Source: a virus
DNA: 64,000 bases
Direction: 5' to 3' (one strand)
Virus record (IMG/VR): IMGVR_UViG_3300042348_000780
Below are positions 70-62,866 of the stretch, one piece after another. Every line of letters begins with the position of its first letter. Within the stretch, counting starts at the first letter, position 1. Position numbers and translations under genes: made by a program. The notes beneath the pieces were generated by a model. The model searched no databases. It saw only the letters and a program-made list of their open reading frames with translations, and had not been told where the DNA came from.

Positions 70-79
70 TGCAAAGACA

Positions 80-101: not shown

Positions 102-122
102 CATCCTGCCCAATTTCATTCT

Positions 123-650: not shown

Positions 651-656
651 ACGGGG

Positions 657-685
657 AATATATCAGAATCCGAAGCGGCTTGCAA
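657..685 (-). promoter_or_regulatory. sigma70-type promoter, leaderless
   Basis: TTGCAA-17-TATATT-6 nt-ATG(650). Confidence 0.75.
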
Positions 686-706
686 GTTGGTCGAAAGAAT
701 GGAGAG

Positions 707-780
707 TTATCCACAAGTTATCCACAATGGTAATACTATCAACATTTATAGGGCTTCGCCCTTATATAAATGTTGATAGT
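707..780. repeat. Repeat unit 2
   Basis: TTATCCACA at 707 and 718; ACTATCAACATTTATA-GGGC-TTC-GCCC-TTA-TATAAATGTTGATAGT 735-780. Confidence 0.95.
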
Positions 781-791
781 TACGCAAAGGT

Positions 792-817
792 CCACCCACG
801 GCTCCTACCGTGGGTGG
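792..817 (-). terminator. Terminator-like hairpin
   Basis: CCACCCACGG/CCGTGGGTGG 10-bp stem just past the stop at 843. Confidence 0.55.
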
Positions 818-842
818 TGTTTGGTTTTTGTTTGGAGTTTGT

Positions 843-1190
843 TTACCTACGTCGCGGTTCGATCATGGTGAGTCGGCACTCACCGTTCATATCTTTCCAG
901 CATCGGAAACGATGCGGGAAGCGATTGTTGAGCATTGGATCGGAGATCCACAATCGGCATCCGTCCCATTGAGGATTGGAACGGAACATACGCAGAGCCA
1001 ATACTGCGGGACTCTCATTCGAGAGAACTTTCAGCGTATTCACACATTCACCGAACGGTGAGCCGTCAAGAATGGCGATGGTATATTCGTCATTCTTGCC
1101 GTTCATATTGAGCGAGATACCGAACATACGAGAGAAGAGGTTGCGGACGGAGGATGCCTTGCGGCCCGATTGAATGGTGGAAGTGACCAT
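843..1190 (-). CDS. Hypothetical cassette protein (115 aa; start re-called to ATG 1190)
   Basis: The track start at 1229 lies upstream of the promoter; ATG 1190 is 6 nt after the -10 box. Confidence 0.7.
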   Translation of the reverse strand: MVTSTIQSGRKASSVRNLFSRMFGISLNMNGKNDEYTIAILDGSPFGECVNTLKVLSNESPAVLALRMFRSNPQWDGCRLWISDPMLNNRFPHRFRCWKDMNGECRLTMIEPRRR

Positions 1191-1196
1191 GCAGAC

Positions 1197-1224
1197 AGTA
1201 TAGCGTCCGTCCCGAAGAATGCAA
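1197..1224 (-). promoter_or_regulatory. sigma70-type promoter, leaderless
   Basis: TTGCAT-16-TATACT-6 nt-ATG(1190). Confidence 0.7.
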
Positions 1225-1239
1225 GCCACTTTCCAAGAT

Positions 1240-1309
1240 TCTGGATAGATTGTGGATAAGTCAAACTATCAACATTGGGGGCCAAAGGCCCAATACCAAT
1301 GTTGATAGT
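1240..1309. repeat. Repeat unit 3 (DnaA boxes in reverse orientation)
   Basis: TCTGGATAG 1240 and TGTGGATAA 1251; ACTATCAACATTGG-GGGCC-AAA-GGCCC-AATA-CCAATGTTGATAGT 1265-1309. Confidence 0.9.
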
Positions 1310-1321
1310 ATTTCAAAGAAT

Positions 1322-1350
1322 AACCAGAGAGTCACATAGACTCTCTGGTT
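1322..1350 (-). terminator. Terminator-like hairpin
   Basis: AACCAGAGAGTC/GACTCTCTGGTT 12-bp stem followed by ATTCTTT on the minus strand. Confidence 0.65.
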
Positions 1351-1372
1351 GATTGTCACGTTGTGAGAGACT

Positions 1373-1573
1373 TCAGAAGTCTCTCAACCGTCTTGCGAGT
1401 TCCTTCTCCTCCTCTGTCATTCGGGAGAAGTCCAATACCCAATGACCCCTCGAATTGAGGCAAGTTGGTAACAACAACTTGAACTCTGCCGCCAATTCGG
1501 GACGGCTCGTCTTGCGACAATTTCGGTCGGTAACTGCGGACGGGGGAAGTACGTTGTTGGAGTTGGTATCCAT
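1373..1573 (-). CDS. Hypothetical cassette protein (66 aa, MDTNSNNV...; start re-called)
   Basis: ATG 1573 lies 6 nt after TATAGT; the longer track ORF would run through the repeat element. Confidence 0.65.
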   Translation of the reverse strand: MDTNSNNVLPPSAVTDRNCRKTSRPELAAEFKLLLPTCLNSRGHWVLDFSRMTEEEKELARRLRDF

Positions 1574-1579
1574 GCCGTA

Positions 1580-1607
1580 ACTATAGCGACTGTCCTGAAG
1601 AGTGCAA
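1580..1607 (-). promoter_or_regulatory. sigma70-type promoter, leaderless
   Basis: TTGCAC-16-TATAGT-6 nt-ATG(1573). Confidence 0.7.
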
Positions 1608-1632
1608 GAGGGTAGGGAGAATCTAGCGAGAT

Positions 1633-1703
1633 TGTGGGTACATTGTGGATATCTCAAACTATCAACAACGGTTAACGGGCAAAGCCCTACCGTTGTTGAT
1701 AGT
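1633..1703. repeat. Repeat unit 4 (DnaA-like boxes reversed, bulge on left arm)
   Basis: TGTGGGTAC 1633, TGTGGATAT 1644; ACTATCAACAACGGT-TAAC-GGGC-AAA-GCCC-T-ACCGTTGTTGATAGT 1658-1703. Confidence 0.9.
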
Positions 1704-1716
1704 ATTTGAAAGCTTT

Positions 1717-1732
1717 GGGAGCCGAAGCTCCC
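1717..1732 (-). terminator. Terminator-like cUUCGg hairpin
   Basis: Minus strand GGGAGC-TTCG-GCTCCC just after the stop at 1743. Confidence 0.6.
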
Positions 1733-1742
1733 TATGTTTGTG

Positions 1743-2024
1743 TTATTTACATATTTGTTTCGCGTGAATAAACAACTCGTCCAATTGATTCTGCAACTGG
1801 TCGAGTTGTGGCCAACGAAGTGCAACTCTGTCGCGGGAAATTTCCCGACGAACCATAGGGTATACTTTCACCAATGCAATAAACAAACTTCGCTTACATT
1901 CAAGCGAAGTTTCGGCAAAGATGTCCTTCATGAGAATGATGCAAACTCTTGACATATCAAGAGTTTGTTCGGGATCCATTGACTCAATACGTGACGAGAG
2001 AGATGAGAGAGTGGAGTTGTGCAT
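1743..2024 (-). CDS. Hypothetical cassette protein (93 aa)
   Basis: ORF fills the interval between promoter and terminator. Confidence 0.75.
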   Translation of the reverse strand: MHNSTLSSLSSRIESMDPEQTLDMSRVCIILMKDIFAETSLECKRSLFIALVKVYPMVRREISRDRVALRWPQLDQLQNQLDELFIHAKQICK

Positions 2025-2030
2025 GATATG

Positions 2031-2059
2031 ACTCTACCCGATTGTCTTCAGACTGTCAA
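2031..2059 (-). promoter_or_regulatory. sigma70-type promoter, leaderless
   Basis: TTGACA-17-TAGAGT-6 nt-ATG(2024). Confidence 0.75.
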
Positions 2060-2070
2060 GCGACCTAGAG

Positions 2071-2143
2071 TTATCCACAGGGTATCCACAAGGCCAAACT
2101 ATCAACAGGGCTAGGGCTTCGCCCTTATAGCCCTGTTGATAGT
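2071..2143. repeat. Repeat unit 5
   Basis: TTATCCACA 2071, GTATCCACA 2082; ACTATCAACAGGGCTA-GGGC-TTC-GCCC-TTA-TAGCCCTGTTGATAGT 2098-2143. Confidence 0.95.
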
Positions 2144-2176
2144 ATTTGAAAGCCCCGTCGCATGGGGCAGAATTGT

Positions 2177-2500
2177 TTATTTTTCTCCAAGACACATCTT
2201 GTGATATTGTACAAGATATTGTTTGAATGATTCAGAGAATGATTCTGAATTGTTAATCGGGATACACAATCCCAATTGTTTGATAATTCTGTCCATTCGT
2301 GAGATATAGGGTTCAATTTCCTTGAATCCACCATTGTCGATACAATGTTTGGACGTATTGACACAATCAATCAATGCGGCTAACAGATCAATTGTGCGAT
2401 CGTGAGATGATTCTAACAACGAAACTGAATCCAAAGCAGATGACCACATTGTTTGGTTGGCCGTTCGAATTTCGGTGATGCGAGTCTGGAAGTCAATCAT
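2177..2500 (-). CDS. Hypothetical cassette protein (107 aa)
   Basis: ORF with GAAAGG SD-like motif; hairpin 2152-2168 after the stop. Confidence 0.75.
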   Translation of the reverse strand: MIDFQTRITEIRTANQTMWSSALDSVSLLESSHDRTIDLLAALIDCVNTSKHCIDNGGFKEIEPYISRMDRIIKQLGLCIPINNSESFSESFKQYLVQYHKMCLGEK

Positions 2501-2553
2501 TGTTAGCCTTTCGTTAGGGTATCTGTCTCGGTGCGAAGATGCCCGATTCTAGT

Positions 2554-2582
2554 ACCCTACCCGATTCTCTTGAGGGTGTCAA
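2554..2582 (-). promoter_or_regulatory. sigma70-type promoter
   Basis: TTGACA-17-TAGGGT, same layout at 3096-3124 and 3470-3498. Confidence 0.6.
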
Positions 2583-2593
2583 GCGACCTAGAG

Positions 2594-2666
2594 TTATCCA
2601 CAGGATATCCACAAGGCCAAACTATCAACATTGCTAGGCCAAAGGCCGTATAGCAATGTTGATAGT
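2594..2666. repeat. Repeat unit 6
   Basis: TTATCCACA 2594, ATATCCACA 2605; ACTATCAACATTGCTA-GGCC-AAA-GGCC-GTA-TAGCAATGTTGATAGT 2621-2666. Confidence 0.95.
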
Positions 2667-2702
2667 ATTTGAAAGCCCCGTCGCATGGGGCAAGGTTCTT
2701 GC

Positions 2703-3023
2703 TTATTCTTCGAGGTCGAAATAATCCATACCAGAGTCAGTATGTCGAACCTTATACCATTCAAGGCCCTTCGAATATTGACGAATTTGATCTACCGTCA
2801 ATTCGACACCGCGCAATTCGCGCGGAATATCCAACTCCAATGTAGCAACGGCATTCGCGTAGGCGGCAACGTGCAGAGGCACGTTGCCGATAATATTGCG
2901 ACTACGCGCATCCTCTTTCGAGATATGCTCGACTACCGTTCCCGTGATTCCGTATCTTTCCCGAAGATACGTAACAAGGGCGGCATGTCGAGTCACAATG
3001 AGAGTTTCGATGTAGTAGGACAT
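2703..3023 (-). CDS. Csx16 (Cas_VVA1548)-like protein, candidate cOA ring nuclease / anti-CRISPR
   Basis: VTRH near the N-terminus, IIGNVPLHVAA and LDIPRELRGVELT match the Csx16 pattern (vTRH...vIGtLPvhlAA...ldlp.elRG.EL). Confidence 0.75.
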   Translation of the reverse strand: MSYYIETLIVTRHAALVTYLRERYGITGTVVEHISKEDARSRNIIGNVPLHVAAYANAVATLELDIPRELRGVELTVDQIRQYSKGLEWYKVRHTDSGMDYFDLEE

Positions 3024-3095
3024 TTGTTAGCCTTCCGTTAGGATCTGTCGTGGGCCGAATTGCCCGTGCATCGGACGAAGTTGCCCGATTCTAGT

Positions 3096-3124
3096 ACCCT
3101 ACCCGATTGTCTTCAGACTGTCAA
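3096..3124 (-). promoter_or_regulatory. sigma70-type promoter
   Basis: TTGACA-17-TAGGGT. Confidence 0.6.
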
Positions 3125-3135
3125 GCGACCTAGAG

Positions 3136-3207
3136 TTATCCACAAGGTATCCACAAGGCCAAACTATCAACATTGGGGGCCAAAGGCCCAATACCAATGT
3201 TGATAGT
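3136..3207. repeat. Repeat unit 7
   Basis: TTATCCACA 3136, GTATCCACA 3147; palindrome 3163-3207 identical to that of unit 3. Confidence 0.95.
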
Positions 3208-3220
3208 ATTTGAAAGGCTT

Positions 3221-3238
3221 GGGAGGCCGAAGCCTCCC
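3221..3238 (-). terminator. Terminator-like cUUCGg hairpin
   Basis: Minus strand GGGAGGC-TTCG-GCCTCCC. Confidence 0.6.
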
Positions 3239-3245
3239 GTGAAGT

Positions 3246-3395
3246 TTAAGTGTATCCATCCATCGATCTAGTGATGCTCTCAATATTAGCAGCATCTTCA
3301 TCGATTTGTCTGGCAATTTCCTCTTCACAATCTTCATATGGGTCGAAGTCATCGCCCCACTCGTCGTCCGTCTCTGAACGTTTCTTCGGTTTCAT
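3246..3395 (-). CDS. Small acidic protein (49 aa), not in ORF track
   Basis: Manual translation MKPKKRSETDDEWGDDFDPYEDCEEEIARQIDEDAANIESITRSMDGYT*; GAAAGG upstream; stop falls just before the terminator hairpin. Confidence 0.7.
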   Translation of the reverse strand: MKPKKRSETDDEWGDDFDPYEDCEEEIARQIDEDAANIESITRSMDGYT

Positions 3396-3469
3396 GGTAG
3401 CCTAGCCTTTCGTTCGGTCTGAAGTGGGCCGAATTGCCCTTGCATCGGACGGAGTTACCCGATTCTAGT

Positions 3470-3498
3470 ACCCTACCCGATTCTATTGAGAGTGTCAA
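3470..3498 (-). promoter_or_regulatory. sigma70-type promoter
   Basis: TTGACA-17-TAGGGT. Confidence 0.6.
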
Positions 3499-3509
3499 GC
3501 GACCTAGAG

Positions 3510-3544
3510 TTATCCACAGGATATCCACATCGTACTATCAACAT
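3510..3544. repeat. Repeat unit 8 (terminal half-site)
   Basis: TTATCCACA 3510, ATATCCACA 3521, ACTATCAACAT 3534-3544 with no complementary arm. Confidence 0.9.
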
Positions 3545-3793
3545 CCAGCCTCGTTATATGGTCACGTTTCTAAACCACGTCACAGGACAGTGAAATTGAC
3601 AAAAGGGAACCCATCCCCTTTAGCCGCTTGCGAGTCCCAAAACCCTAACACACCCAAAATTCCTATTAAATTATAATGGGACTCCCAGACCTCAAAAATT
3701 TTTTCTGGGAAAAAAATGCTCTATTAGCGTTTTCTAAATATATTAAATGAAGCATTTAGCCTGATCTCCTACATTATAGAAAGGAAAATAAAT

Positions 3794-4159
3794 ATGACAC
3801 TCAAAGAATACTATAAGAATAGACTACAAGAAGCTGTTTTGTCGAATAAATTACGCCGAACTTTAGGCGCAGTCGGCCTAGCGTCTAGCCTTTTCGCTGG
3901 AGGAGGCGCAGCGGTCGGTGTGGCAGCTCCGTATATAAGAGATGCAAAAACTACTTTTCATAAAGCAATAGGAAATCCTGTTGGTGGAGAAGAAGTTAGT
4001 CGGGCAAGGGCAGAAGCCGCTAATAAGGTGGGTCTTGTTGGATCAACCGTTCCCGCTGGTAAAAGAGCCTTATATGGAGCAGGACTAGGTGTTGGACTTC
4101 TTGGTGCTGGTATGGCTGCTGAAGTCTTAAAAGGAAGAATAAAGGGAAGAAGAAAATAA
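3794..4159 (+). CDS. Putative internal virion protein with two Gly-rich hydrophobic segments
   Basis: MTLKEYYKNRLQE N-terminus; AGGA SD. Confidence 0.6.
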   Translation: MTLKEYYKNRLQEAVLSNKLRRTLGAVGLASSLFAGGGAAVGVAAPYIRDAKTTFHKAIGNPVGGEEVSRARAEAANKVGLVGSTVPAGKRALYGAGLGVGLLGAGMAAEVLKGRIKGRRK

Positions 4160-4168
4160 AAAGGCTCT

Positions 4169-4654
4169 ATGAAATCATTTAAGCATTATTTAATTGAAGT
4201 ATTAACTTTTAAAAATAATTCATCCTGGGCATATCATCCAGATACAGGTTTTGCTCATGAAAAAAGTGGAGCAAGAGAACATTTTGATGTTTTTCCTCAT
4301 CTAGAATTTATGGATCGAGGAAAGGAAGCAGACGAAAAACGTAGAATACCTCAACGTAAAAGAATTCCAGCACAATCTTGGGGAAGAGTAGATCACGATA
4401 ATCGTATTGTACATATAATTACTCAGAATGGTCAAATGGTTCCATCAAGTAGACTTACTGGAAAAAGACTTGAAGATGATGTATTTAATAGAATTACCGC
4501 AGTAAAACATATTCGACAACATTTTCCTGACTATAGAATTCATGTTAGTGGTCATCAACAACCTGGATATGGCGACAAAGTAACCACGGATATCACAACT
4601 CATAATTATGATGAACATCTAAAACATTTAACTGGTCTTTTGGCTGATAAATAA
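4169..4654 (+). CDS. Putative capsid-targeted internal protein
   Basis: N-terminus MKSFKHYLIE. Confidence 0.65.
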   Translation: MKSFKHYLIEVLTFKNNSSWAYHPDTGFAHEKSGAREHFDVFPHLEFMDRGKEADEKRRIPQRKRIPAQSWGRVDHDNRIVHIITQNGQMVPSSRLTGKRLEDDVFNRITAVKHIRQHFPDYRIHVSGHQQPGYGDKVTTDITTHNYDEHLKHLTGLLADK

Positions 4655-4659
4655 AATAC

Positions 4660-5214
4660 ATGAAATCCTTTAAGCAATATCTCTCAGAAGCAGGAAAGCT
4701 CTATAGGTTTGATGATAAAATACTCATCCCGAAAGCCCAGACTTATGCATTTTCTCCAGATGGTACAGGTTCTGGTAATGTAGAAAATAATGTTGGATGG
4801 GTTCCCCCAAAAGACTGGAAAGAAAAAAAAGGATTGTTTGCTGGTCAATATCACCATGTTCTTTCGTATGCTGTTCCTAGATCTACCAGGTGGCTCGTAA
4901 CGGGTAAGAGAACAAAAGAAGAGAAACCAACTATACATTTCACAGAAGATGACAGAGAGGCAATAAACGCCCATAGACCAACAATCTCTCAATATAATGT
5001 AAGACAAGGGTTTGAAAGATCTCAGGCTAATAGCGGTGAATATTTTGCTCAGGCTGATAAGGCTCCTTCTCCCATCTCACAAAAAACAATAGAAGATCCA
5101 ATAGAACATATTAAAAAACATTTTAATGTTAACTTTGTTCCAGATCTTGATCGTCATAAAAGAGATTTAGATGCACGGGGAATCAATTATAATGCAGAAG
5201 GAGATTTTAATTGA
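4660..5214 (+). CDS. Putative capsid-targeted internal protein
   Basis: N-terminus MKSFKQYLSE; GATAAATA late-promoter-like motif 6 nt before ATG. Confidence 0.65.
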   Translation: MKSFKQYLSEAGKLYRFDDKILIPKAQTYAFSPDGTGSGNVENNVGWVPPKDWKEKKGLFAGQYHHVLSYAVPRSTRWLVTGKRTKEEKPTIHFTEDDREAINAHRPTISQYNVRQGFERSQANSGEYFAQADKAPSPISQKTIEDPIEHIKKHFNVNFVPDLDRHKRDLDARGINYNAEGDFN

Positions 5215-5678
5215 AATCCTTTAAGCAATATCTCTCAGAAGCCAGACCAACAGGCCAAAAAAGATATCAAAGAGACATTTCTAAATTAGAAACTCGACTT
5301 GATAAAATGTATGCTGCTGGTGGTTCTCAGAAAAAAATAGACAGGGCCGAGATGAGACTTGCCAGGAAAACGAATGAAGGTGAATTTGACATTGATGATC
5401 AAAGACTTCCAAAACTAAAATCTACAGAATATCACCTTGAAGTCGAGGAACATCCAATGGCCATGTCTCTTGATGAATTAATGAGAGAAAAAGCCAAGAA
5501 AATTCATACTCATAATTATACACATGGCATGGTGGGTGCAGAGATTCGTTCAGGAATAACTGACTTAACATACAATCCTGGTCTGAAGGCAGATGTTACT
5601 GATGAGCAACTTGGACAAGAGGCTCATAGAATGTTCATGGCTCATGAGAATATGAAATCAAGAATTAAAAAGAAATAA
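5211..5678 (+). CDS. Putative capsid-targeted internal protein
   Basis: TTG start, MKSFKQYLSE; 31 nt identical to the start of the preceding gene. Confidence 0.65.
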   Translation: MKSFKQYLSEARPTGQKRYQRDISKLETRLDKMYAAGGSQKKIDRAEMRLARKTNEGEFDIDDQRLPKLKSTEYHLEVEEHPMAMSLDELMREKAKKIHTHNYTHGMVGAEIRSGITDLTYNPGLKADVTDEQLGQEAHRMFMAHENMKSRIKKK

Positions 5679-5698
5679 ATAATAATAAAGGATATTAT

Positions 5699-6235
5699 AT
5701 GGATTGCAATAAATCAAAAATGAAAAAGAAGAAGTACATGAAAGAAAATGAAGAGTTTATGGCTTTAAAAGATTATTATAAAAATATTTTATCAGAAGCC
5801 ACAAGAGCAATAGCTCAAAGAACCGACTTGATTGATTTTAATCCAAGAGATGTTCATGGTAATAAAAGAAATCCAATAGATTATCCATTTAAAAAAACAG
5901 GAGAAAGTAGAGGAATTTTAGGTTTTGTACAAGGTAAGCCAGCTCCACGATTCGTAAATCCAAAAGATACTGCAAGATCTAGACCTCCTAGAACTAAACC
6001 ATCAGTAGATAAAAAGGGAAGAGATAAAAGACTTAAATATAAAATTGCAACTCTTAGACCTAGAATGAATTATGATCCAGAAACAGGTCTTAATTTTGCT
6101 GCTGATGCACTAGAGCGTAGAGGTTTTGAAGTTCCACCAATAGATCCTAAAAATTTGCCGCCTTTTCATGAAATTGAACAAGCATACGATATACAACATT
6201 TCAATCGCGCAAGGGGAAATAAATACTTTAAATAA
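5699..6235 (+). CDS. Basic hypothetical protein, possible internal protein
   Basis: Internal MALKDYYKNILSE resembles the N-terminus of 3794-4159. Confidence 0.55.
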   Translation: MDCNKSKMKKKKYMKENEEFMALKDYYKNILSEATRAIAQRTDLIDFNPRDVHGNKRNPIDYPFKKTGESRGILGFVQGKPAPRFVNPKDTARSRPPRTKPSVDKKGRDKRLKYKIATLRPRMNYDPETGLNFAADALERRGFEVPPIDPKNLPPFHEIEQAYDIQHFNRARGNKYFK

Positions 6236-6257
6236 GTATTTTTAAACAAATAAAAAG

Positions 6258-6287
6258 AACAGTGTCTTCCATAGACACTGTTTTTTT
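6258..6287 (+). terminator. Rho-independent terminator
   Basis: AACAGTGTCT/AGACACTGTT stem followed by a T run. Confidence 0.8.
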
Positions 6288-6300
6288 CTAAATATACTAT

Positions 6301-6636
6301 ATGAAATCCTTTAAAATATATCTTCAAGAGGAATCAGAAAGGCAAATGCGTCTTGGTGATTTTGTCGAGGTTGGCACAAATGTGAAAGATCCTCATTTTT
6401 ATATTGTTCGTCGGGGTGCTGAACATGAAGTCGGTAAACCAACAAAAAAACCCAATCCACAGCATTTTGGTTTCAGAGTGATTAATACAGATAGTTTAGA
6501 TCCAAATTATGCTTTTTACATGATGCAACATATAGCAAATACTGGTCATTATAAACAATTTGCAACTGGTTCTACAAAACTTGTAAATATTCGAGCAAAT
6601 CATATTACAGATATTCCTCTGGGGATAAGACAATGA
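6301..6636 (+). CDS. Putative internal protein resembling a single type I R-M HsdS target-recognition domain
   Basis: MKSFKIYLQE tag, then MRLGDFVEV...LDPNYAFYMMQ...ATGSTKLVNIRANHITDIPL. Confidence 0.55.
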   Translation: MKSFKIYLQEESERQMRLGDFVEVGTNVKDPHFYIVRRGAEHEVGKPTKKPNPQHFGFRVINTDSLDPNYAFYMMQHIANTGHYKQFATGSTKLVNIRANHITDIPLGIRQ

Positions 6637-6836
6637 AATCATTTCAACAATATATCAAACCAGCATCAACTGGAATTGAAGAACCACTCCCTCGGGGTTT
6701 TAGTGTTATAACACCAACAGTTCCAAAACCAAAAGGTATTCCAATAAAGGCACAGCCAGCTCCTAAACAACAACCAAAACAACCATCTACATTTGCTGCC
6801 ATATTAGCCAGAGCCAGGGAACTCGCAAAGAAATGA
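6633..6836 (+). CDS. Small Pro-rich protein with internal-protein-like N-terminus
   Basis: MKSFQQYIK; ATGA overlaps at both ends. Confidence 0.55.
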   Translation: MKSFQQYIKPASTGIEEPLPRGFSVITPTVPKPKGIPIKAQPAPKQQPKQPSTFAAILARARELAKK

Positions 6837-7435
6837 AATCCTTTAAAGAATATCTTATAGAAAACCCTATATTAGAACCACCAAGGGATGAATTTGTTAG
6901 ACCAAATATACGAACAGAATTACCAAAGGCTCATTCAGATCTATATTCTTTGGGTTCTAGTGTAATCGATGGTAATGAATATCATTTTCATGGATATTCT
7001 TCAAACAAAGACTCACCCTTTACTCAAGAACGATTACACAGTGGCTATGTGACGATGAAAGATTCTCAAGGAACACATAAGGTTGTTGGTAATACTGATT
7101 TCTATCCTCATGATTCTGAGCATAATACTTATTATTCAAATTTTCCAAAATTAAATAAAGAACATACTGGTAAAGGATTGATGTCTGAACTCTATAAGAG
7201 ATGGGCAGATCATAACAAATATACATTGATTTCTGGGCGTGTTCATACTAGAGGTGGTAAGAATATATGGGCCGAGTTGTCTCAAAAAGGTACGGTCACG
7301 GCTCATGACACGAACAGAGAAGGTAGTCGCCCTATAGTGTATGATTCTAATAATCCAAAACATTATACTAAATTCTATACAGCTACAAGAACTTCAAATC
7401 CAATACGATGGTTATTCAAGTATAAAGGTAAATAA
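6833..7435 (+). CDS. Putative internal protein, GNAT-like
   Basis: MKSFKEYLIE; LNKEHTGKGLMSELY resembles GNAT motif A; T.GGKNIW. Confidence 0.55.
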   Translation: MKSFKEYLIENPILEPPRDEFVRPNIRTELPKAHSDLYSLGSSVIDGNEYHFHGYSSNKDSPFTQERLHSGYVTMKDSQGTHKVVGNTDFYPHDSEHNTYYSNFPKLNKEHTGKGLMSELYKRWADHNKYTLISGRVHTRGGKNIWAELSQKGTVTAHDTNREGSRPIVYDSNNPKHYTKFYTATRTSNPIRWLFKYKGK

Positions 7436-8232
7436 TGAAATCTTTTAAACAATATATTTCTGAAGATATATTAGGTGGATATGATCCAGAAGTAACACAT
7501 GATGAAAAACCACCAGAGAAAAACATTAAATCTTTAGATGAATTAGTCAAAAAGTTGGGTAATAATTATACACATGATCCAGAATCACAAAGAGTTGATT
7601 TGAATGATAAATTTCATATTCGTTATAAAAAATTCTCTGAGTCAGATTCGAGTGGATATACAAAGCATCATTTAAATGTTAATGTATTTTCAAATGCACC
7701 TGGTCATGAAAACACATCTTTAGCAACATATCGTCTTTCACATGATAACTACAGTGTTGTAAAAACACCAGATGGCAAAGAAATAAAAATGTTTTCTGGT
7801 AATCCACAGAAAAAAACAAGAGATGTAAAGAGTGGAGTATTTGAACTTCCACATAATTTCTTACATACTATAGCCAATGCTACAGGATATGGAATTATGA
7901 GTGGTGATATTCAGAGTCCTGGTTCAGTTCATATGTGGAGAAAAGCAGTACAACACGGACATGAAAATGATCATCATGTAGGAAAATTTATACACACTTC
8001 AGAAGAACCATCTAGACCTAGAAAATTTGGACAACCAAGAGTTATTAAATTACAATCACTTGGAAAGATAACACCGTCAACATTTCAGGATGCCTATACT
8101 GGAGATGTTTCAACTGATCGATCTGGAAATACATCAAAAGTTATTAAAAATAAATTTGATCTACCACATGGAGTAGATACTGAAGGAATGATAACAAGAG
8201 ATGAAACTCTCTTAGGAATATTACCAAAATGA
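7435..8232 (+). CDS. Putative internal protein, possibly degenerate GNAT-like
   Basis: MKSFKQYISE; IMSGDIQSPGSVHMW parallels LISGRVHTRGGKNIW in the preceding gene. Confidence 0.55.
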   Translation: MKSFKQYISEDILGGYDPEVTHDEKPPEKNIKSLDELVKKLGNNYTHDPESQRVDLNDKFHIRYKKFSESDSSGYTKHHLNVNVFSNAPGHENTSLATYRLSHDNYSVVKTPDGKEIKMFSGNPQKKTRDVKSGVFELPHNFLHTIANATGYGIMSGDIQSPGSVHMWRKAVQHGHENDHHVGKFIHTSEEPSRPRKFGQPRVIKLQSLGKITPSTFQDAYTGDVSTDRSGNTSKVIKNKFDLPHGVDTEGMITRDETLLGILPK

Positions 8233-8423
8233 AAACATTTAAACAATTGATGAGTGAGATGATCAATCCAATAAGACAATCTACACCATCTACACAAAAA
8301 GCAAAAGCAGAACCGAAGATACCACCAGTGAAGCCAGTGACAACAGACGGAGATACTTTTGAAAAGTCACCTCCACCAAAGCCTCGACCAACTTATACAA
8401 AACCATCAAGACCCAAACCGTAA
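8229..8423 (+). CDS. Small Pro/Lys-rich putative internal protein
   Basis: MKTFKQLMSE. Confidence 0.55.
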   Translation: MKTFKQLMSEMINPIRQSTPSTQKAKAEPKIPPVKPVTTDGDTFEKSPPPKPRPTYTKPSRPKP

Positions 8424-8879
8424 AGGTTTTGGATTTTTACTCAGAGGCATATTTGCTTCTTTTGGTGTACGATCACCCTTTTTACGATTACACTTCAAAC
8501 AACTTGTAACAACATTTTGCCATTCATGTCTTCCACCTTTTGATCTCGGAATGACATGATCTACTGTGGCATTTGTATATTCTAGTTTACAAGAACAGTA
8601 TTGGCAGATATAATCATCTCTCTTAAAAATATTCTTTCTGGAAGGACTTAAATCCCTAAAAGGAATATACACATACTTTTTAAGAGCAAGGTGAAGAGGT
8701 AATTTAAATATCCCACTTCCCGTTTTGATTTCTAAATATTCTTCTTCAGTACATGGAGCCACTTTATCATTGATAAGTAATACGACAGCATGTTTCCAAT
8801 CAATATCAATCAGCTTCTGATAAGACATATTATACAACGCAACAGTACTCATAGACATATTTATCCTTATACCAGACAA
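8406..8879 (-). CDS. HNH endonuclease (McrA-like)
   Basis: RDDYICQYC...TVDHVIPRSKGG..W.NVVTSC.KCN.KK; true start may be an internal Met near 8858. Confidence 0.9.
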   Translation of the reverse strand: MSGIRINMSMSTVALYNMSYQKLIDIDWKHAVVLLINDKVAPCTEEEYLEIKTGSGIFKLPLHLALKKYVYIPFRDLSPSRKNIFKRDDYICQYCSCKLEYTNATVDHVIPRSKGGRHEWQNVVTSCLKCNRKKGDRTPKEANMPLSKNPKPLRFGS

Positions 8880-8922
8880 AATTATTATAATTATTTTTCA
8901 TAATGTTGTCAAGTGGCAAAAA

Positions 8923-8930
8923 TATAAATA
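8923..8930 (+). promoter_or_regulatory. T4-type late promoter
   Basis: TATAAATA, 5 nt before ATG 8936. Confidence 0.65.
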
Positions 8931-8935
8931 TTTTT

Positions 8936-9154
8936 ATGAAAACATTTAAAGCACTAACCGAGGAAATATTTAAAAAGGGTGGACGTGAAGTTGAATATGC
9001 TCCTGGAGAAAAGAAAGCAGCTGATGCATTGCATAAAAGTGGTATTCGTCTTTCTAAACGTAGAAAAGGAATATCATCATTTAATTTAAAAAGAATAAGA
9101 AAACTTTCTAAGAAAGGTCATTCTGTTCATGGTGTTAAAAAGAAACGCAAGTAG
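8936..9154 (+). CDS. Basic putative internal protein (start re-called)
   Basis: MKTFKALTEE just after TATAAATA. Confidence 0.6.
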   Translation: MKTFKALTEEIFKKGGREVEYAPGEKKAADALHKSGIRLSKRRKGISSFNLKRIRKLSKKGHSVHGVKKKRK

Positions 9155-9419
9155 GACGATTCTTATAGAAGAATTATCTAAAGGTATATGTAAGGTAGTA
9201 TTTCGAAAAGCCACCAATGGAAGATTTCGAAGTATTTTTGGTACATTAAAACCAACATTGATACCTGGCAGATATCAAAATACAATTATGGAAATACACA
9301 AAGCCCAGGATGATCCAAATCTTTTACCATTTTATGACGTAAAAGAACAATCATGGAAAAGCTTTTACATTTATAATATTGAATCTTTCTATACTGAAGA
9401 AGAAATCAAAAAGAAATAA
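9129..9419 (+). CDS. SH3/Sm-like beta-barrel protein (WYL_2/DUF2693-like)
   Basis: VFRK..G.FR...GTL...IP ... FYDV....WKSF. Confidence 0.65.
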   Translation: MVLKRNASRTILIEELSKGICKVVFRKATNGRFRSIFGTLKPTLIPGRYQNTIMEIHKAQDDPNLLPFYDVKEQSWKSFYIYNIESFYTEEEIKKK

Positions 9420-9863
9420 TTAATTTAATCCTATTGACAATGTTTGTGTCACTGCGTCAGTTAATAGATTAGTTATTTCTAATCTTAGAGCTTTTAATGT
9501 TAATGTATAAGATATAGCATTACCAGGTTCTGTTGCTGTTATTGTTAAGACATCATTATTATTAAATTGTTCTGATAATAATCTATTTGTACCAATTCTT
9601 GAAGCAACAGTAAATGTATCAATTAATCTACTATTTTTAAAAAATTGTAGTGTATGATTTGCAGAAAAAGTTCCGTTTGATGTTGTAACTGCTAATGTTA
9701 CTGGAGAATTTACTCCACTTATTGTTGTTGATACAGATCCAGAAATAAGACCAGATATTGCTGTTGGAGAGAAAGTAATAGCACCAGGTGTTGCGTCTAT
9801 AGAAGTAAAAATATTTCTACTTGCATTTATAGATGGATTTACATATTTTCTTGAATTACGCAT
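9420..9863 (-). CDS. Hypothetical beta-rich, likely virion protein
   Basis: Ser/Thr-rich ORF coupled to the upstream gene by TAATG. Confidence 0.6.
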   Translation of the reverse strand: MRNSRKYVNPSINASRNIFTSIDATPGAITFSPTAISGLISGSVSTTISGVNSPVTLAVTTSNGTFSANHTLQFFKNSRLIDTFTVASRIGTNRLLSEQFNNNDVLTITATEPGNAISYTLTLKALRLEITNLLTDAVTQTLSIGLN

Positions 9864-10240
9864 TAGTATGCAATAAATCCTAATGTTATACCAACTACTG
9901 AAGAACCAGATGTTTTAAATACAACATCATTTAAATCATTCACTGGTAAGAACAATTCTGAGTTTGTTGCTAATAGGAATCCATCAGCGGTAGCACCAGA
10001 ACCAGGATAAGTACCAGCAGTTTTTCCTTCAATACTAATAACAGCATTGCTTACAGAACCAACATTTCTTATAAGAACGCCTTCTGATAATACTGTTGAT
10101 GATGGTTTTGTAAATGTACCACCTTGAAGATATACCCACGAAGTTGCAGTGTTGGCAACCAGACCAGTTGTAGTTTGAACTACTTTTGGATCATATACTT
10201 TAATGCTACGAATGTCTGTATTATTGAGTTTAAATGACAT
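9863..10240 (-). CDS. Hypothetical virion protein, similar to the C-terminus of 16606-17883
   Basis: GFLLATNSELFLPVNDLNDV vs GFPLDPGESIFFEIDNLNKV; TATAAATA upstream (10256-10263, minus). Confidence 0.6.
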   Translation of the reverse strand: MSFKLNNTDIRSIKVYDPKVVQTTTGLVANTATSWVYLQGGTFTKPSSTVLSEGVLIRNVGSVSNAVISIEGKTAGTYPGSGATADGFLLATNSELFLPVNDLNDVVFKTSGSSVVGITLGFIAY

Positions 10241-10311
10241 ATTATTTTCCTATATTATTTATAAACTTGACATTTTGAATATTTATGCTAATATAAAGCA
10301 AAGGAGCTTTT

Positions 10312-10476
10312 ATGCCAAATACAACAAATCGTGAGGCTAAGATTAAGCATCGAAAGAGGAAGAACCGTATTACTCGTCAGAATCAAGAAAACATTGCTAA
10401 GAATGCTAAGAAAAAGACATTGGAAAAATTACATAAGGAAGGTCGATTACCTAAAATCGCACTGGGAAGGCTCTGA
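10312..10476 (+). CDS. Small basic protein (54 aa), not in ORF track
   Basis: AAGGAG SD; TTGACA-16-TAATAT at 10267-10294; MPNTTNREAKIKHRKRKNR...; hairpin and T run at the end. Confidence 0.65.
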   Translation: MPNTTNREAKIKHRKRKNRITRQNQENIAKNAKKKTLEKLHKEGRLPKIALGRL

Positions 10477-10503
10477 GCCTTCTTTTTTTTTATAAATATT
10501 TTT

Positions 10504-10872
10504 ATGAAGAACTTTAAAGATTTTATTACGGAAAAAATGCGAAAAGATCCAAAACAAGAAGAGGCTCGTCTACTTTCTCGTTTAGAACGTATCAGATCAG
10601 AAATACCAACAATTACTCCTGATGAAAGTAAAATATTATATTCACAGGATCCATCTGTCAAGAAATCAACAGAAGCAAGAAAAATTAGTGGAAAATTATT
10701 TAAACAAGCTAGTAAGTCTGCTCAATTCAGAGATGTAGAAGCATCATTACAGGGTGTTGAGGATATCTCAAGAGGAGCCGTAGGAAAACAAACATCTGCT
10801 TTATCTAGAGGATTTGGTACACCAAGTCAAATTAGAGCCTATAAAACTTCCACTGGAAAATATACAAAATAA
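10504..10872 (+). CDS. Putative capsid-targeted internal protein
   Basis: MKNFKDFITE; TATAAATA at 10491, 5 nt before ATG. Confidence 0.65.
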   Translation: MKNFKDFITEKMRKDPKQEEARLLSRLERIRSEIPTITPDESKILYSQDPSVKKSTEARKISGKLFKQASKSAQFRDVEASLQGVEDISRGAVGKQTSALSRGFGTPSQIRAYKTSTGKYTK

Positions 10873-10877
10873 TTCCA

Positions 10878-11033
10878 ATGAAAAAATTTAAAACTCTTCT
10901 TGAAACTATAATTAAACGCGGAGACAAATATTTACTTATGAGTAAAAAAGGTAAAGTGCTTGGTACACATTCATCAGAGAAAAAAGCACGTAATCAAGAA
11001 GTGGCTATAAAGAAGAGCACTGGTGAATGGTGA
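10878..11033 (+). CDS. Small basic putative internal protein (51 aa), not in ORF track
   Basis: MKKFKTLLETIIKRGDKYLLMSKKGKVLGTHSSEKKARNQEVAIKKSTGEW*. Confidence 0.6.
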   Translation: MKKFKTLLETIIKRGDKYLLMSKKGKVLGTHSSEKKARNQEVAIKKSTGEW

Positions 11034-11069: not shown

Positions 11070-11585
11070 ATGAATATTTTTGCTGTGCATGAAAATCCTA
11101 TTATTGCAGCACGTTCTCTTTGCGACAAACACGTAGTTAAGATGATTGTAGAAGGCTGTCAGATGCTTTCTACAATTCATCGTTTAGGAGCATCACATAT
11201 TGTTCATGCTCCCGTTGAACTATACAAACAATCATTTGTCAATCACCCATGTACAATTTGGGCAAGAGAAACAATTGAAAATTATTTTTGGCTTGCCTAT
11301 CATACAAACGAACTTTCGGTAGAATATACTGAAAGATATAATAGAGAACATAAAGCACATCAGATGACTAAGTGGTTTTTGAAAGTTCCACCCATGAAAA
11401 TCCCATATGGCGATTTAACACCATTTGCTCAAGCAATGCCTGATAAATATAAAAACTCTGATTCGGTTCAAGCATATCGTGATTATTATATTCATGAAAA
11501 GTCAAGATTTGCTAAGTGGAAATTCACTGAACCGCCAGAATGGTATACACAAGGTGTAAACAATGTGCAAATGCAAGTATTGTGA
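11070..11585 (+). CDS. Pyrimidine-dimer DNA glycosylase / DenV-related family protein
   Basis: MNIF...AA..LCDKHVVKMIVE..QML...NHPCTIW...F.QAMP...AYR.YY..EK. Confidence 0.75.
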   Translation: MNIFAVHENPIIAARSLCDKHVVKMIVEGCQMLSTIHRLGASHIVHAPVELYKQSFVNHPCTIWARETIENYFWLAYHTNELSVEYTERYNREHKAHQMTKWFLKVPPMKIPYGDLTPFAQAMPDKYKNSDSVQAYRDYYIHEKSRFAKWKFTEPPEWYTQGVNNVQMQVL

Positions 11586-13045: not shown

Positions 13046-13120
13046 GCGCCGTGGGAGGTCTTGGTTATCTCAGTTCGACTTATAATCGAATAAGACTTGG
13101 TTCGATTCCAAGACGGCGTA
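13046..13120 (+). tRNA. tRNA-Ile(UAU)
   Basis: GCGCCGT/ACGGCGT acceptor, TTCGA/TCGAA stem with CT-TAT-AA loop, CTTGG-TTCGATT-CCAAG T arm; atypical D arm. Confidence 0.8.
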
Positions 13121-59004: not shown

Positions 59005-59646
59005 ATGAAGTTAATCACAGAAACAATTGAAAACGTAAAAACTCTTGTAGAGTCTACCGACAATGGTAAAAATTATTATATTGAAGGTATTATGATGCAA
59101 GGTGAAACTGTGAATCGTAATGGAAGAAAATATAGCATTAATATTCTTGAAAACGAGTGTGGCCGTTATGTCAAGGAATACGTTGATAAAAAACGTGCTC
59201 TAGGTGAATTAAATCACCCATCTGGTCCATCTGTAAATCTAGATCGTGTCTCACACATGATTGTAGAATTAAATCAAGAAGGTAATAATTTCATCGGTAA
59301 AGCTAAAATATTAGATACACCGATGGGTAAAATTGTTAAATCATTGATTGATGAAGGTGCTTTATTGGGTGTTTCTTCAAGAGGTATGGGAACATTAAAA
59401 AGAGTAAACGAAATTAATGAAGTTCAATCAGACTTTACTTTAAGTGCTATTGATATTGTTGCTGATCCATCAGCTCCAGATGCCTTTGTAAATGGTATTC
59501 TGGAAGGAAAAGAGTGGGTATGGCACAATGGATTACTTAGAGAAAAAGAATTGTCTGAAATGAAAAAACAATTGCAAAAGACCAGTAAAAAAGATATGGA
59601 AAAAAAAGCCATAAAAATGTTTGAAAACTTTTTGAGGAAGTTATGA
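59005..59646 (+). CDS. gp21: Prohead protease gp21
   Basis: NRNGR.Y; ALGEL.HP; GVSSRG.G; DIVADPSAPDAFV. Confidence 0.97.
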   Translation: MKLITETIENVKTLVESTDNGKNYYIEGIMMQGETVNRNGRKYSINILENECGRYVKEYVDKKRALGELNHPSGPSVNLDRVSHMIVELNQEGNNFIGKAKILDTPMGKIVKSLIDEGALLGVSSRGMGTLKRVNEINEVQSDFTLSAIDIVADPSAPDAFVNGILEGKEWVWHNGLLREKELSEMKKQLQKTSKKDMEKKAIKMFENFLRKL

Positions 59647-60473: not shown

Positions 60474-61409
60474 ATGAATCAAGGTCAAGATGTACAAGAT
60501 GCAACAGGAAAGGGAACTTTCGCCTCGAATGGCGTAACTCCTATGTTTGCTAAACCAATTGCAAAAGACGGTTTAGCAAAAGCAAACATGGCTTCACTTT
60601 CACCTCAAGGTGGTGCAGCACCAAAGCAAAACACCACAGAAGAACCAGAAGATGATATGGAAGAAACCAAAGAATCAGTACAATTAGATATTACTGATTA
60701 TGTTGATGCACTTTTTGAAGGACAAGATCTTTCAGATGAATTCAAAGCAAAGGCTGCAACCTTGTTTGAAGCTGCTTTGAATGAAAAAGTAGCAATCATC
60801 GAACAAGCAATTTTACAAGCATCACAAGAAGTAATTGAGGAAGAAGTATCCGCAGTAGCATCTACTCTCACTGAGCAAGTAGACGGTTATCTTGGATATG
60901 TTCTCAATGAATGGATGGAAGAAAATCGTCTTCAAGTCGAGCAAGGTTTCCGTACCGAGATTGCCGAAAACTTTATCCAAGGACTCAAAGAGTTGTTTGA
61001 AAATAACTATATTGAAGTTCCAGAAGAAAAGGTCGATCTCGTTGATGAATTATTTGCCGAGAATCGTCAACTTGAAGAAAATCTTAATCAACTCATGAAA
61101 CAGCACATGGAATTACAAGAGAAAAATATTGTAAATGAATGTGCTAATGTTTTCATGGAACTTTCATCAGATCTTGCAGATACAGAAGTTGAAAAACTTG
61201 CTTCACTCTGCGAGTCTATTGAATTCAATTCAGTTGATCAATACAAAGAAAAAGTAAAAATACTCAAAGAGTCATATTTTAATGGTAAGTCACCTGAAGC
61301 AGAAAGCCTCACCGAAGAAACTACTACTTCATCTAAACCATTTATCAATGAAGATATGAATGTTTATGTCAATTCAATCAGTAAGCATCTCAAAGCCATA
61401 AAAGGTTAA
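60474..61409 (+). CDS. gp22: Prohead core scaffold gp22
   Basis: LS.EFK.KA.T.FEAA; VD.YL.YV..EWM.EN; LKESYF. Confidence 0.93.
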   Translation: MNQGQDVQDATGKGTFASNGVTPMFAKPIAKDGLAKANMASLSPQGGAAPKQNTTEEPEDDMEETKESVQLDITDYVDALFEGQDLSDEFKAKAATLFEAALNEKVAIIEQAILQASQEVIEEEVSAVASTLTEQVDGYLGYVLNEWMEENRLQVEQGFRTEIAENFIQGLKELFENNYIEVPEEKVDLVDELFAENRQLEENLNQLMKQHMELQEKNIVNECANVFMELSSDLADTEVEKLASLCESIEFNSVDQYKEKVKILKESYFNGKSPEAESLTEETTTSSKPFINEDMNVYVNSISKHLKAIKG

Positions 61410-61438: not shown

Positions 61439-62866
61439 ATGGATTTTAATGGAATAACCCCTTATGACCAACTTCTTGAGAAGTGGTCCCCAATCATTGA
61501 TCACCCAGAATTAGACAAGATCAATGACATTCAACGTCGTCGTAATACCGCAGTTCTTCTTGAGAATCAAAAGAAGGCACTCAGAGAAGGTGCAAGTGAT
61601 TTCCTCACAGAAGCACCTGTAAATGCTATGGGTGGCAATTTTGCCAATAATCAAGTAGCTCAAGGTGGCGCATCAACATCAGCTCTCGCTGGTTATGATC
61701 CAATCCTAATCAGCCTTGTTCGTCGTGCAATGCCTAACGTCGTTGCTTATGATGTAGCAAGCGTTCAACCAATGTCAGCACCAACTGGTCTTATCTTTGC
61801 ATTCCGTTCAAGATACGACAATCAAGCTGGTCTTGAGGCAATGTATGATGAACCAATCGCATCCTTCGCTGGTGCTCTTGGATCAACTGGTGTTGGTGCT
61901 GGTGCTACTGGCTTTACTTATACCAACCCATTTGGTCTAGGTGCTTCATCTGGTAGCTGGAATGCTTCACCAGATCGTAAAGATTTGTTTAATTCATTCC
62001 GTGGTTTCCTTACACAAAATGCAGAATCACTCGGTGAAGCTGGCAACCCATTCAAGGAAATGTCATTCAGCATTGAACGTGTCGCAGTACAAGCTCGTAC
62101 ACGCGCACTCAAGGCAGAATACACAACTGAACTTGCACAAGATCTCAAGGCTGTTCACGGTCTTGATGCTGAGGCGGAACTCGCAAATATTCTTTCAACT
62201 GAAATCTTGAACGAAATCAACCGCGAAATTCTCCGTGCAGTTTACACCATTGCCAAGACAGGTTCACAACAAAGAGATCTTTCATACTCTGGTTCATACG
62301 ATCTCTCAACAGATTCTGACGGTCGTTGGTCAGCTGAAAGATATCGTGGCCTCATGTTCCAAATCGAACGTGAAGCAAACGTCATTGCGAAAGAAACTCG
62401 TAGAGGCAAGGGTAACTTCATTCTTTGCAGCGCAGATGTTGCTTCTGCTCTCGCAATGGGTGGATTCCTTAATCTCTCACCAGCACTCAACGTCAATATG
62501 AATGTTGATGATACTGGTAACGTCTTCGCAGGCGTTCTCAACGGCAAGTACAAGGTCTTCATCGATCCATTCGTTCCTGCTGGTGTTGACTTCTTCATGG
62601 TTGGTTATAAGGGTCAATCCCCATATGACGCTGGTATGTTCTACTGCCCATACGTTCCGCTACAAATGGTACGTGCAGTCGGTCAAGATACCTTCCAACC
62701 CAAGATTGGCTTCAAGACTCGTTACGGCATGGTCGCAAATCCATTCGCCAAGGGTCGTGATGTAATCAGCGCAAACGCTGAAGGTTTGGATGCTAATAGC
62801 AACGTCTATTACAGACTTACTCGCGTAGTCAATCTCCATGGTCTTGATTCAGGCTTCAATACCTGA
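61439..62866 (+). CDS. gp23: Major capsid protein gp23
   Basis: LISLVRR.MP; VQPM..PTGLIFA; ELAQDLKAVHGLDAE.EL; YCPYVPLQM; FQPKIGFKTRYG. Confidence 0.99.
   Translation: MDFNGITPYDQLLEKWSPIIDHPELDKINDIQRRRNTAVLLENQKKALREGASDFLTEAPVNAMGGNFANNQVAQGGASTSALAGYDPILISLVRRAMPNVVAYDVASVQPMSAPTGLIFAFRSRYDNQAGLEAMYDEPIASFAGALGSTGVGAGATGFTYTNPFGLGASSGSWNASPDRKDLFNSFRGFLTQNAESLGEAGNPFKEMSFSIERVAVQARTRALKAEYTTELAQDLKAVHGLDAEAELANILSTEILNEINREILRAVYTIAKTGSQQRDLSYSGSYDLSTDSDGRWSAERYRGLMFQIEREANVIAKETRRGKGNFILCSADVASALAMGGFLNLSPALNVNMNVDDTGNVFAGVLNGKYKVFIDPFVPAGVDFFMVGYKGQSPYDAGMFYCPYVPLQMVRAVGQDTFQPKIGFKTRYGMVANPFAKGRDVISANAEGLDANSNVYYRLTRVVNLHGLDSGFNT

Follow-up and report, generated by a model that had tools for sequence, protein, structure and literature searches.

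The internal proteins of T-even phages are non-homologous and have only a packaging leader in common; at least 10 types and two hypervariable loci have been described (PMC12373910, PMC9391042, PMC3012670). T4 Ip1, Ip2 and Ip3 inhibit one restriction enzyme of the GmrSD type each, and the three enzymes differ (Silas et al. 2025, PMC12373910); the sequence of the T4 leader and its removal are established (PMC8442874). Mutagenesis of the IPIII leader with amber suppressors assigned targeting to residues 4 and 7 and processing to residues 8 and 10 (PMC9026906). Here we analyze a 64-kb window (the whole stretch of DNA studied, from IMG/VR virus record IMGVR_UViG_3300042348_000780), in which 13 tandem genes between positions 3794 and 11033 open with a common peptide of this kind. 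We consider it likely that this locus corresponds, in enlarged form, to the ipIII/ipII internal-protein locus of T4, with leader-loaded cargo that would be packaged and injected; the number of proteins that the phage loads into its head and delivers with its DNA is thus probably unusually high.

The system is therefore a known one, that of the T-even internal proteins, and what is new is the number of genes, the distant aquatic lineage, the enzyme-like cargo and a second leader class. The likeness to IPI, IPII and IPIII (Mullaney and Black 1996; Repoila et al. 1994) covers the leader, its critical positions, the (L/I)-x-E motif, the non-homologous basic bodies, the position upstream of denV, the presence of protease and scaffold genes, and the hypervariability of the locus among relatives. 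T4 has ipII and ipIII at this locus and ipI elsewhere, whereas the window has all 13 genes at one locus. The window phage, which is uncultured, also differs in its capsid protein, less than 60% identical to that of any cultured phage, in its GNAT-fold and DUF6943 cargo, and in the additional 13-residue leader.

Two further systems deliver proteins from the head. T4 Alt is a head-carried enzyme, an ADP-ribosyltransferase, with a cleaved propeptide and delivery alongside the DNA, and as such it is a precedent for the GNAT-fold cargo g6833 described below (cargo genes are named here by their start positions or numbered in order). Alt differs in being approximately 70 kDa and processed at both ends (PMC9026906) and in catalyzing a reaction other than that of a GNAT; no Alt homolog was seen in the window. 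The ejection proteins of the giant phages phiKZ and SPN3US and the Dar proteins of P1 are likewise head-packaged, with an N-terminal propeptide cut after Glu, and some act against restriction (PMC5694885). Their propeptides, however, are at least 100 residues long with the motif A/S-x-E, and they have neither leader nor locus in common with the window. The literature searched yielded no account of the leader in phages other than T-even ones, and internal proteins are not mentioned by Petrov et al. 2010.

An earlier note on this DNA had claimed that about 13 proteins share a capsid-targeting tag, and this count stands: 13 plus-strand genes begin with the common peptide, and every N-terminus quoted there was found in its place, including the variant leaders at 3794 and inside the open reading frame (ORF) at 5699. 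Eleven genes carry a 10-residue leader with the consensus M-K-(S/T/N/K)-F-(K/Q)-x-(Y/F/L)-(L/I/M/T)-x-E, and genes 1 and 5 carry the 13-residue variant, M-x-L-K-x-Y-Y-K-N-x-L-x-E. The 13 genes, with lengths in amino acids (aa), are as follows.

3794..4159, + strand: tagged gene 1, 121 aa; variant leader of 13 residues with the end L-Q-E, then A; body basic and Gly/Ala-rich, with two hydrophobic stretches
4169..4654, + strand: tagged gene 2, 161 aa; leader ending L-I-E, then V; tagged homolog with 49% identity in the related record L126
4660..5214, + strand: tagged gene 3, 184 aa; leader ending L-S-E, then A
5211..5678, + strand: tagged gene 4, 155 aa; starts with TTG, in overlap with the gene 3 stop codon; homolog in the related record L125
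5759..6235, + strand: tagged gene 5, 158 aa; starts at an internal ATG of the ORF opening at 5699; variant leader ending L-S-E, then A
6301..6636, + strand: tagged gene 6, 111 aa; body DUF6943
6633..6836, + strand: tagged gene 7, 67 aa; Pro/Lys-rich, pI 11.8
6833..7435, + strand: tagged gene 8 (g6833), 200 aa; GNAT acetyltransferase fold by predicted structure
7435..8232, + strand: tagged gene 9 (g7435), 265 aa; conserved family, no fold assigned
8229..8423, + strand: tagged gene 10, 64 aa; Pro/Lys-rich, basic
8936..9154, + strand: tagged gene 11, 72 aa; 35% Lys+Arg
10504..10872, + strand: tagged gene 12, 122 aa; basic; terminator-like hairpin upstream at 10464-10484
10878..11033, + strand: tagged gene 13, 51 aa; basic; leader one residue shorter, with L-L-E at 7-9

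The first 32 nt of genes 3 and 4 are the same save for the first base of the start codon (ATG versus TTG), and the variant leader of gene 5, internal to a longer ORF here, stands at a true N-terminus in the relative (L126:537). A scan of the genome for the leader, which the earlier note had proposed, was run in all six frames of the 64 kb: the strict motif M-K-x-F-(K/Q) matched outside the array only in two trivial ORFs of 8 and 20 codons. A looser pattern, applied to 925 candidate starts, recovered 12 array genes and three strays, with 2.3 expected from shuffled N-termini, so that outside the array the motif occurs only at chance level.

The same note had called the bodies behind the leaders unrelated. 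This holds for direct comparison of all against all (BLASTP with the first 14 residues removed; best E 0.046) but not entirely for one pair: because the g6833 and g7435 families have a 40-column motif block in common (hhalign probability 87.5%, E 3.6e-6), these two cargo proteins may be distant relatives. The tagged proteins are 51 to 265 aa long, and the predicted mature forms of all 13 are basic (pI 8.05-11.8), as are the T4 internal proteins (PMC8442874).

We compared the leaders with those of T4 position by position. The leader of ipII and ipIII, M-K-T-Y-Q-E-F-I-A-E, was read directly in NC_000866 and is as the earlier note had given it; that of ipI begins M-K-T-F-K-E-F, runs to 19 residues and ends in I-T-E, leaving the known 76-residue IPI*. 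At every position the 11 window leaders are conservative variants of these. At the two targeting positions, F4 is present in 11 of 11, and position 7 is Y or F in eight and L in three. In T4, replacing E10 with D stops processing. The processing motif (L/I)-x-E occupies residues 8-10 in eight genes, with M in place of L/I in 8229. It reads T-E-E at 8-10 in 8936, sits at 7-9 in 10878 and falls at 15-17 in 6633; both variant leaders have it at 11-13. The possible site in 6633 is I-E-E, recalling the long IPI-type leader. A profile of 30 leaders, drawn from the window phage and two relatives, demonstrated the same pattern of constraint: M1 100%, K2 97%, F4 100%, K5 90%, Y/F7 70% (otherwise mostly L/I), I/L8 90% and E10 87%.

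Selection acts on the leader peptide rather than on its DNA, because synonymous codons vary freely at conserved residues (Ser3 TCC/TCT/TCA, Lys5 AAA/AAG, Tyr7 TAT/TAC) and because g7435 homologs with only 41-57% overall identity all keep M1, K2, S3, F4 and E10. In the AlphaFold model of g6833, residues 4-10 of the leader are predicted to form a short helix, which a linker modelled with low confidence (11-22) joins to the folded domain; in the model, this is the shape expected of a detachable tag.

One further T4 gene carries the leader. Gene 61.1 (NC_000866 18966-19130; L133:467-631, minus strand), beside the primase gene, encodes a 54-aa protein annotated only as hypothetical, with the near-perfect leader M-K-T-F-K-E-F-I-K-E. 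To our knowledge, it is not among the listed T4 virion proteins.

The genomic setting agrees with the T4 arrangement. The window is that of a T4-like myovirus, with a T4-type portal, a gp21-type protease, a gp22-type scaffold, gp23, large terminase, tail sheath and baseplate protein; the genes for gp20, gp21, gp22 and gp23 are thus all within it. Its capsid protein is at most 59% identical to those of cultured phages, the closest being marine cyanomyoviruses and Methylophilales phage Melnitz. A megablast search of 50,697 phage records with the array returned no match, and the record nearest to the window (G001) is a 25.9-kb fragment with the array outside its span. The genes that anchor the comparison with T4 are the following.

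11070..11585, + strand: denV homolog, pyrimidine dimer glycosylase; perfect sigma-70-type promoter; positional anchor common with T4
59005..59646, + strand: gp21-type prohead protease, Peptidase_S77 (E 4.4e-40); the enzyme expected to cut off the leaders
60474..61409, + strand: gp22-type scaffolding core protein, T4_CASP (E 5.4e-62); the expected docking partner of the leader
61439..62866, + strand: gp23 major capsid protein; residues 54-58, F-L-T-E then A, align with the T4 site E65/A66

In T4 (NC_000866) the order is e, ipIII, ipII, denV, then the rnaC stable-RNA/tRNA region, then ipI. In the window the array ends at 11033 and is followed, after a 37-nt gap, by denV and then by tRNA genes, so the array occupies the ipIII/ipII position. 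The same denV-side placement of leader genes was found in L125, L126 and cyanophage S-CREM2. ARAGORN and Rfam differ on two tRNAs beyond denV: a tRNA-Ile(tat) at 13046-13120 was called by ARAGORN only and a tRNA at 14875-14949 by Rfam only. The specificity of the protease is likely conserved as well, since the T4 maturation site S-F-L-T-E65/A aligns with D-F-L-T-E58/A in the window gp23, with F-L-T-E/A identical.

Between the portal and protease genes, at 58478-58996, lies a gene for a very acidic 172-aa protein, in a position that we take to correspond to T4 genes 67/68. Its start, M-N-N-F-S-D-L-I...I-M-E, is leader-like, and head core proteins may therefore use a related docking peptide.

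Cultured cyanophages connect the leader with virions. The leader pattern occurs once or twice each in Syn9, P-SSM2, P-SSM4, S-SM1 and S-CREM2, and in the first four it heads the cytidylyltransferase cluster T4-GC190, which was detected in purified S-SM1 virions and listed as a structural protein (Sullivan et al., PMC3037559). The S-CREM2 virion proteome includes six 'non-structural' proteins, of whose true packaging its authors were unsure (PMC10665884). Among the S-CREM2 virion proteins whose N-termini were read, four (SAM hydrolase, APH-like kinase, cytidylyltransferase and the small gp13) begin with the leader M-K-x-(F/L)-x-x-F-L-x-E, and the Cas9-like gp12 has a leader-like stretch at residues 18-25. 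As the mostly leader-bearing gp12-gp15 lie just upstream of denV, with gp11 alone between (OR473000, 7704-13331, L151), S-CREM2 has an ip-like locus in the T4 position, a point absent from the paper on that phage.

Neither of the two papers ties its virion proteins to a targeting leader, and the text of the S-CREM2 paper contains no instance of 'capsid targeting' or 'N-terminal' (PMC10665884). What the proteomes show directly is that, in this phage group, proteins bearing the leader get into the virion; they are evidence of presence, not of cleavage or injection. S-SM1 and S-CREM2 belong to the wider group supplying the closest capsid matches to the window phage, and several of the S-CREM2 leader genes share its denV-side position; they have one to a few scattered leader genes, in contrast to 13 in tandem in the window.

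The leader is also widespread in public viral contigs. A 30-nt degenerate version of the pattern was found in at least 120 IMG/VR contigs. Among the matches listed, it opens an ORF of at least 40 aa in 116 of 120, nine of the 13 such records of at least 58 kb carry a T4-type hallmark gene (gp21, gp23 or gp32), and the 95 non-redundant leader proteins fall into 54 unrelated clusters. A gp21 protease was found in one of 50 further tag-bearing records; because nearly all of these are fragments below 50 kb and the array lies approximately 50 kb from the head genes, this search is uninformative.

Pfam searches of the leader proteins identified, in some of them, S-AdoMet lyase, anti-CBASS Acb1, Zeta-toxin/AAA_33 kinases, adenylate kinase and NUDIX enzymes, as well as cytidylyltransferase-like proteins, lysozymes and DUF6267. 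The cargo domain begins after residue 13-37 in every mapped case, indicating that the leader is a modular add-on. The commonest cargo sampled is a family of approximately 200 aa, accounting for 15 of the 95 non-redundant proteins (L004, L007, L008, L041, L102, L113 and nine further loci); its representative L004:2044-2658 has no Pfam match. The 13-residue variant leader is rare, with four IMG/VR matches, two of them from one phage.

Related phages show that the content of the array turns over. L125 represents one lineage, and L126 and L127 are near-identical IMG/VR records of one phage. Upstream of a denV that is 63-68% identical to that of the window, L125 and L126 carry 10-13 leader genes in a gene order different from the window's, and only four of the 13 window cargo proteins have homologs there (g5211, g6301 and g7435 in L125; g4169, g6301 and g7435 in L126). 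In the 117.8-kb record G011, which holds L126, all seven strict DNA matches to the leader lie on one strand within the first 15.2 kb; a reversed control pattern gave no match in any of the 18 records searched, G011 included.

Some leader pairs are identical in DNA over 32-39 nt, starting at the ATG (at most 1 nt upstream), with unrelated flanks. Since identity begins at the ATG and the flanks are unrelated, these pairs point to recombination within the leader, and since relatives carry different cargo behind the same leader, leader DNA appears to act as a crossover point. General concerted evolution of the tag DNA was considered and rejected: tags of one genome have a mean identity of 0.69 and those of different genomes 0.68, and only some pairs are identical. 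Cargo domains are also reshuffled, not just swapped whole, because DUF6943, the body of the 111-aa g6301, is the C-terminal domain of a 395-aa leader protein in L126 (4584-5771).

In the PeSL cassettes of T4-type phages (Arbiol et al. 2010, PMC2839356), single genes likewise appear to be swapped by recombination at a short sequence that is conserved where genes meet. The repeated element of the array differs in being a coding leader, and its genes are on the other strand and apparently late rather than early. PeSL-like cassettes are present at 1-3700 of the window, where G+C is higher (45-48%) and repeat units of approximately 400-700 bp, mostly 520-540 and each with a long palindrome, flank small minus-strand genes.

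Profile searches assigned few of the cargo proteins: for 11 of the 13, no usable match came from Pfam, PHROGs or NCBIfam. Weak matches of g4169 to metallo-beta-lactamases were rejected, with scores far below the curated cut-offs. Five proteins (g6633, g8229, g8936, g10504 and g10878) are short and very basic, and partly Pro/Lys-rich. For g7435, the predicted model had no match among PDB folds at E 0.001 or better.

The AlphaFold2 (AF2) model of g6833 (pLDDT 80.9) was more informative. All top Foldseek matches are GNATs (best E 1.5e-4); comparison with HAT1 gave a VIA Z of 10.4 and an rmsd of 3.4 A over 130 residues; and its atlas neighbours carry Acetyltransf_1. Searches against Pfam and NCBIfam found no match at E 0.1 or better, and the canonical acetyl-CoA loop (Q/R-x-x-G-x-G/A) is absent: the invariant G-K-G-L-M-S-E-L-Y has the G-x-G but no Q/R three residues before it. 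On these two grounds we report g6833 only as having a GNAT-like fold, as judged from its predicted structure. A search of IMG/VR with the g6833 locus found no relative, and the protein database supplied 13.

The organization of the array bears on its expression. The genes are tightly packed, five of them overlapping the preceding stop codon: 6633, 6833 and 8229 by ATGA, 5211 by TTGA, and 7435 by one base. Terminator-like hairpins at 6258-6282, 8443-8460 and 10464-10484 split the array into approximately four units. Two of the elements within it are as follows.

6258..6282, strand not assigned: terminator-like hairpin with a 10-bp stem and T runs on both sides, between genes 1-5 and genes 6-10
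8406..8879, - strand: untagged HNH endonuclease gene splitting the array; perfect sigma-70-type promoter TTGACA-17-TATAAT

Strong sigma-70-type promoters were found on none of the tagged genes, and perfect ones on the untagged neighbours denV and HNH. The earlier note had pointed to late-promoter-like motifs before several of the genes. This is correct as to position: 8936 and 10504 each have TATAAATA 5 nt ahead of the ATG, as the scaffold gene has one upstream, and CTAAATAT is found 6 nt ahead of 6301 and 53 nt ahead of 3794; late-type motifs stand close upstream of four to six tagged genes. Enrichment of TATAAATA as evidence for late promoters was rejected, as only 10 copies occur on the plus strand of the window, about as many as base composition predicts. 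Late expression of the array is plausible but weakly supported by these motifs.

Untagged genes also lie among tagged genes 10-12. The HNH gene has a probable homolog at the equivalent spot in L126 (9597-10052), judged only by similar N-terminal residues. A WYL_2 (Sm-like SH3) protein without the leader follows tagged gene 11 at 9129-9419 and is conserved in L125, and two minus-strand ORFs of 147 and 125 aa, without family match, lie at 9420-10240, between the WYL_2 gene and tagged gene 12.

Taken together, each prediction of the capsid-targeting reading that could be tested at the level of sequence came out positive, and the interpretation put forward in the earlier note is supported. By analogy with T4, we infer that all 13 proteins enter the head, lose their leaders and are injected, and that they serve as effectors against host defences. 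Under this model, each gene would encode a cargo behind a capsid-targeting leader of 9-17 residues; the leader would bind the gp22 scaffolding core as the prohead is built, and the gp21-type protease would cut behind the Glu of (L/I)-x-E. The basic cargo, once released, would stay in the head with the DNA and enter the next host with it, before phage gene expression. The one or two GNAT-fold cargo proteins would probably be enzymes modifying a host target, the small, very basic Pro/Lys-rich peptides may mainly neutralize DNA charge, and the cargo without an assigned fold would most plausibly inhibit host defences, like T4 Ip1-3.

Several observations weigh against this interpretation. The phage is uncultured, and packaging of its cargo is predicted from sequence; the cyanophage proteomes speak to the presence of proteins and not to their N-terminal processing. 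The cleavage position departs from the motif in three members: Glu10 is missing from 6633, the Glu of 10878 is at position 9, and 8936 reads T-E-E. Since gp61.1 of T4 has the leader and yet is a hypothetical protein, the leader alone may not prove packaging. Among the matches listed, four of the 13 long tag-bearing records lack a T4 hallmark, all four being 21-43% complete; a search for Portal_T4 in the long hallmark-negative records found none, but the control for that search was also silent. In family profile searches, no cargo of the array matched a known anti-defence family. Lastly, the late-promoter motifs are not enriched overall, while prohead loading requires late expression.

An alternative, which we regard as unlikely, accepts that the leader loads the prohead but holds the cargo to be mainly structural or physical, that is, degraded core or scaffold accessories or basic DNA-condensing counter-ions rather than injected effectors. 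All 13 proteins are basic and five are short, low-complexity and Lys/Pro-rich; T4 internal proteins touch DNA phosphates through lysines (PMC3012670); and the acidic core protein at 58478-58996 has a leader-like start too. A folded, GNAT-fold cargo is nevertheless hard to explain as a counter-ion, the same leader elsewhere carries enzymes (SAM lyase, Acb1, kinases), and T4 Ip1-3 each inhibit a specific restriction enzyme (PMC12373910). The high turnover of cargo among relatives also suits an arms race better. Less probable still is that the leader only resembles the T4 signal and sorts or docks its proteins elsewhere, be it to the membrane, to a chaperone of the phage or to a host factor. Packaging in the window phage is a prediction, and gp61.1 carries the leader without known virion association, both of which leave room for such a signal; but the leader is charged and amphipathic rather than a hydrophobic secretion signal, the locus is positionally homologous to the T4 ip genes, and cyanophage leader proteins were found in CsCl-purified virions.

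The shared start could also be an element of RNA or translation, namely an AT-rich initiation region, a translational repressor site or a stop-codon coupling device. The leader codons are AT-rich, a clear Shine-Dalgarno sequence precedes few of the genes, and both the stop-codon overlaps (ATGA/TTGA in four genes, one base in 7435) and the tags identical over 32-39 nt would fit such an element. Conservation, however, reaches Glu10, ten codons in, with residues fixed while synonymous positions vary freely; tag DNA is on average no more alike within genomes than between them (0.69 versus 0.68); approximately 60 other window genes of the same composition lack the motif; and the leader matches, position for position, a peptide signal that was defined by experiment. 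We therefore hold an RNA-level origin to be highly improbable, and the reading as an enlarged internal-protein locus remains the one we prefer.

A broader proposal joins these results. The leader would be a universal, readable address label across the aquatic T4-like radiation, and its DNA the crossover site of cargo-swapping cassettes that carry inhibitors, GNATs, SAM lyases, Acb1 and kinases; the array would be among the largest of such depots, and most of its orphans would be first-minute counter-defence factors. We offer this combination tentatively, judging it less likely than not to hold.

The idea of leader-packaged, injected proteins is established for T-even phages, and this instance extends it without adding a new principle. 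Because proteins co-injected with DNA act before phage gene expression, they are prime candidates for countering restriction and the other defences that respond first. Should the leader prove a reliable label, the window gives 13 such candidates at once, from a lineage without a cultured member. The same leader retrieves at least 54 unrelated cargo families from metagenomes, known counter-defence enzymes included, and gives a simple account of why cytidylyltransferases, kinases and a SAM hydrolase recur in purified cyanophage virions. Were the leader a universal label, one could read off the genome of any such phage which proteins it injects.

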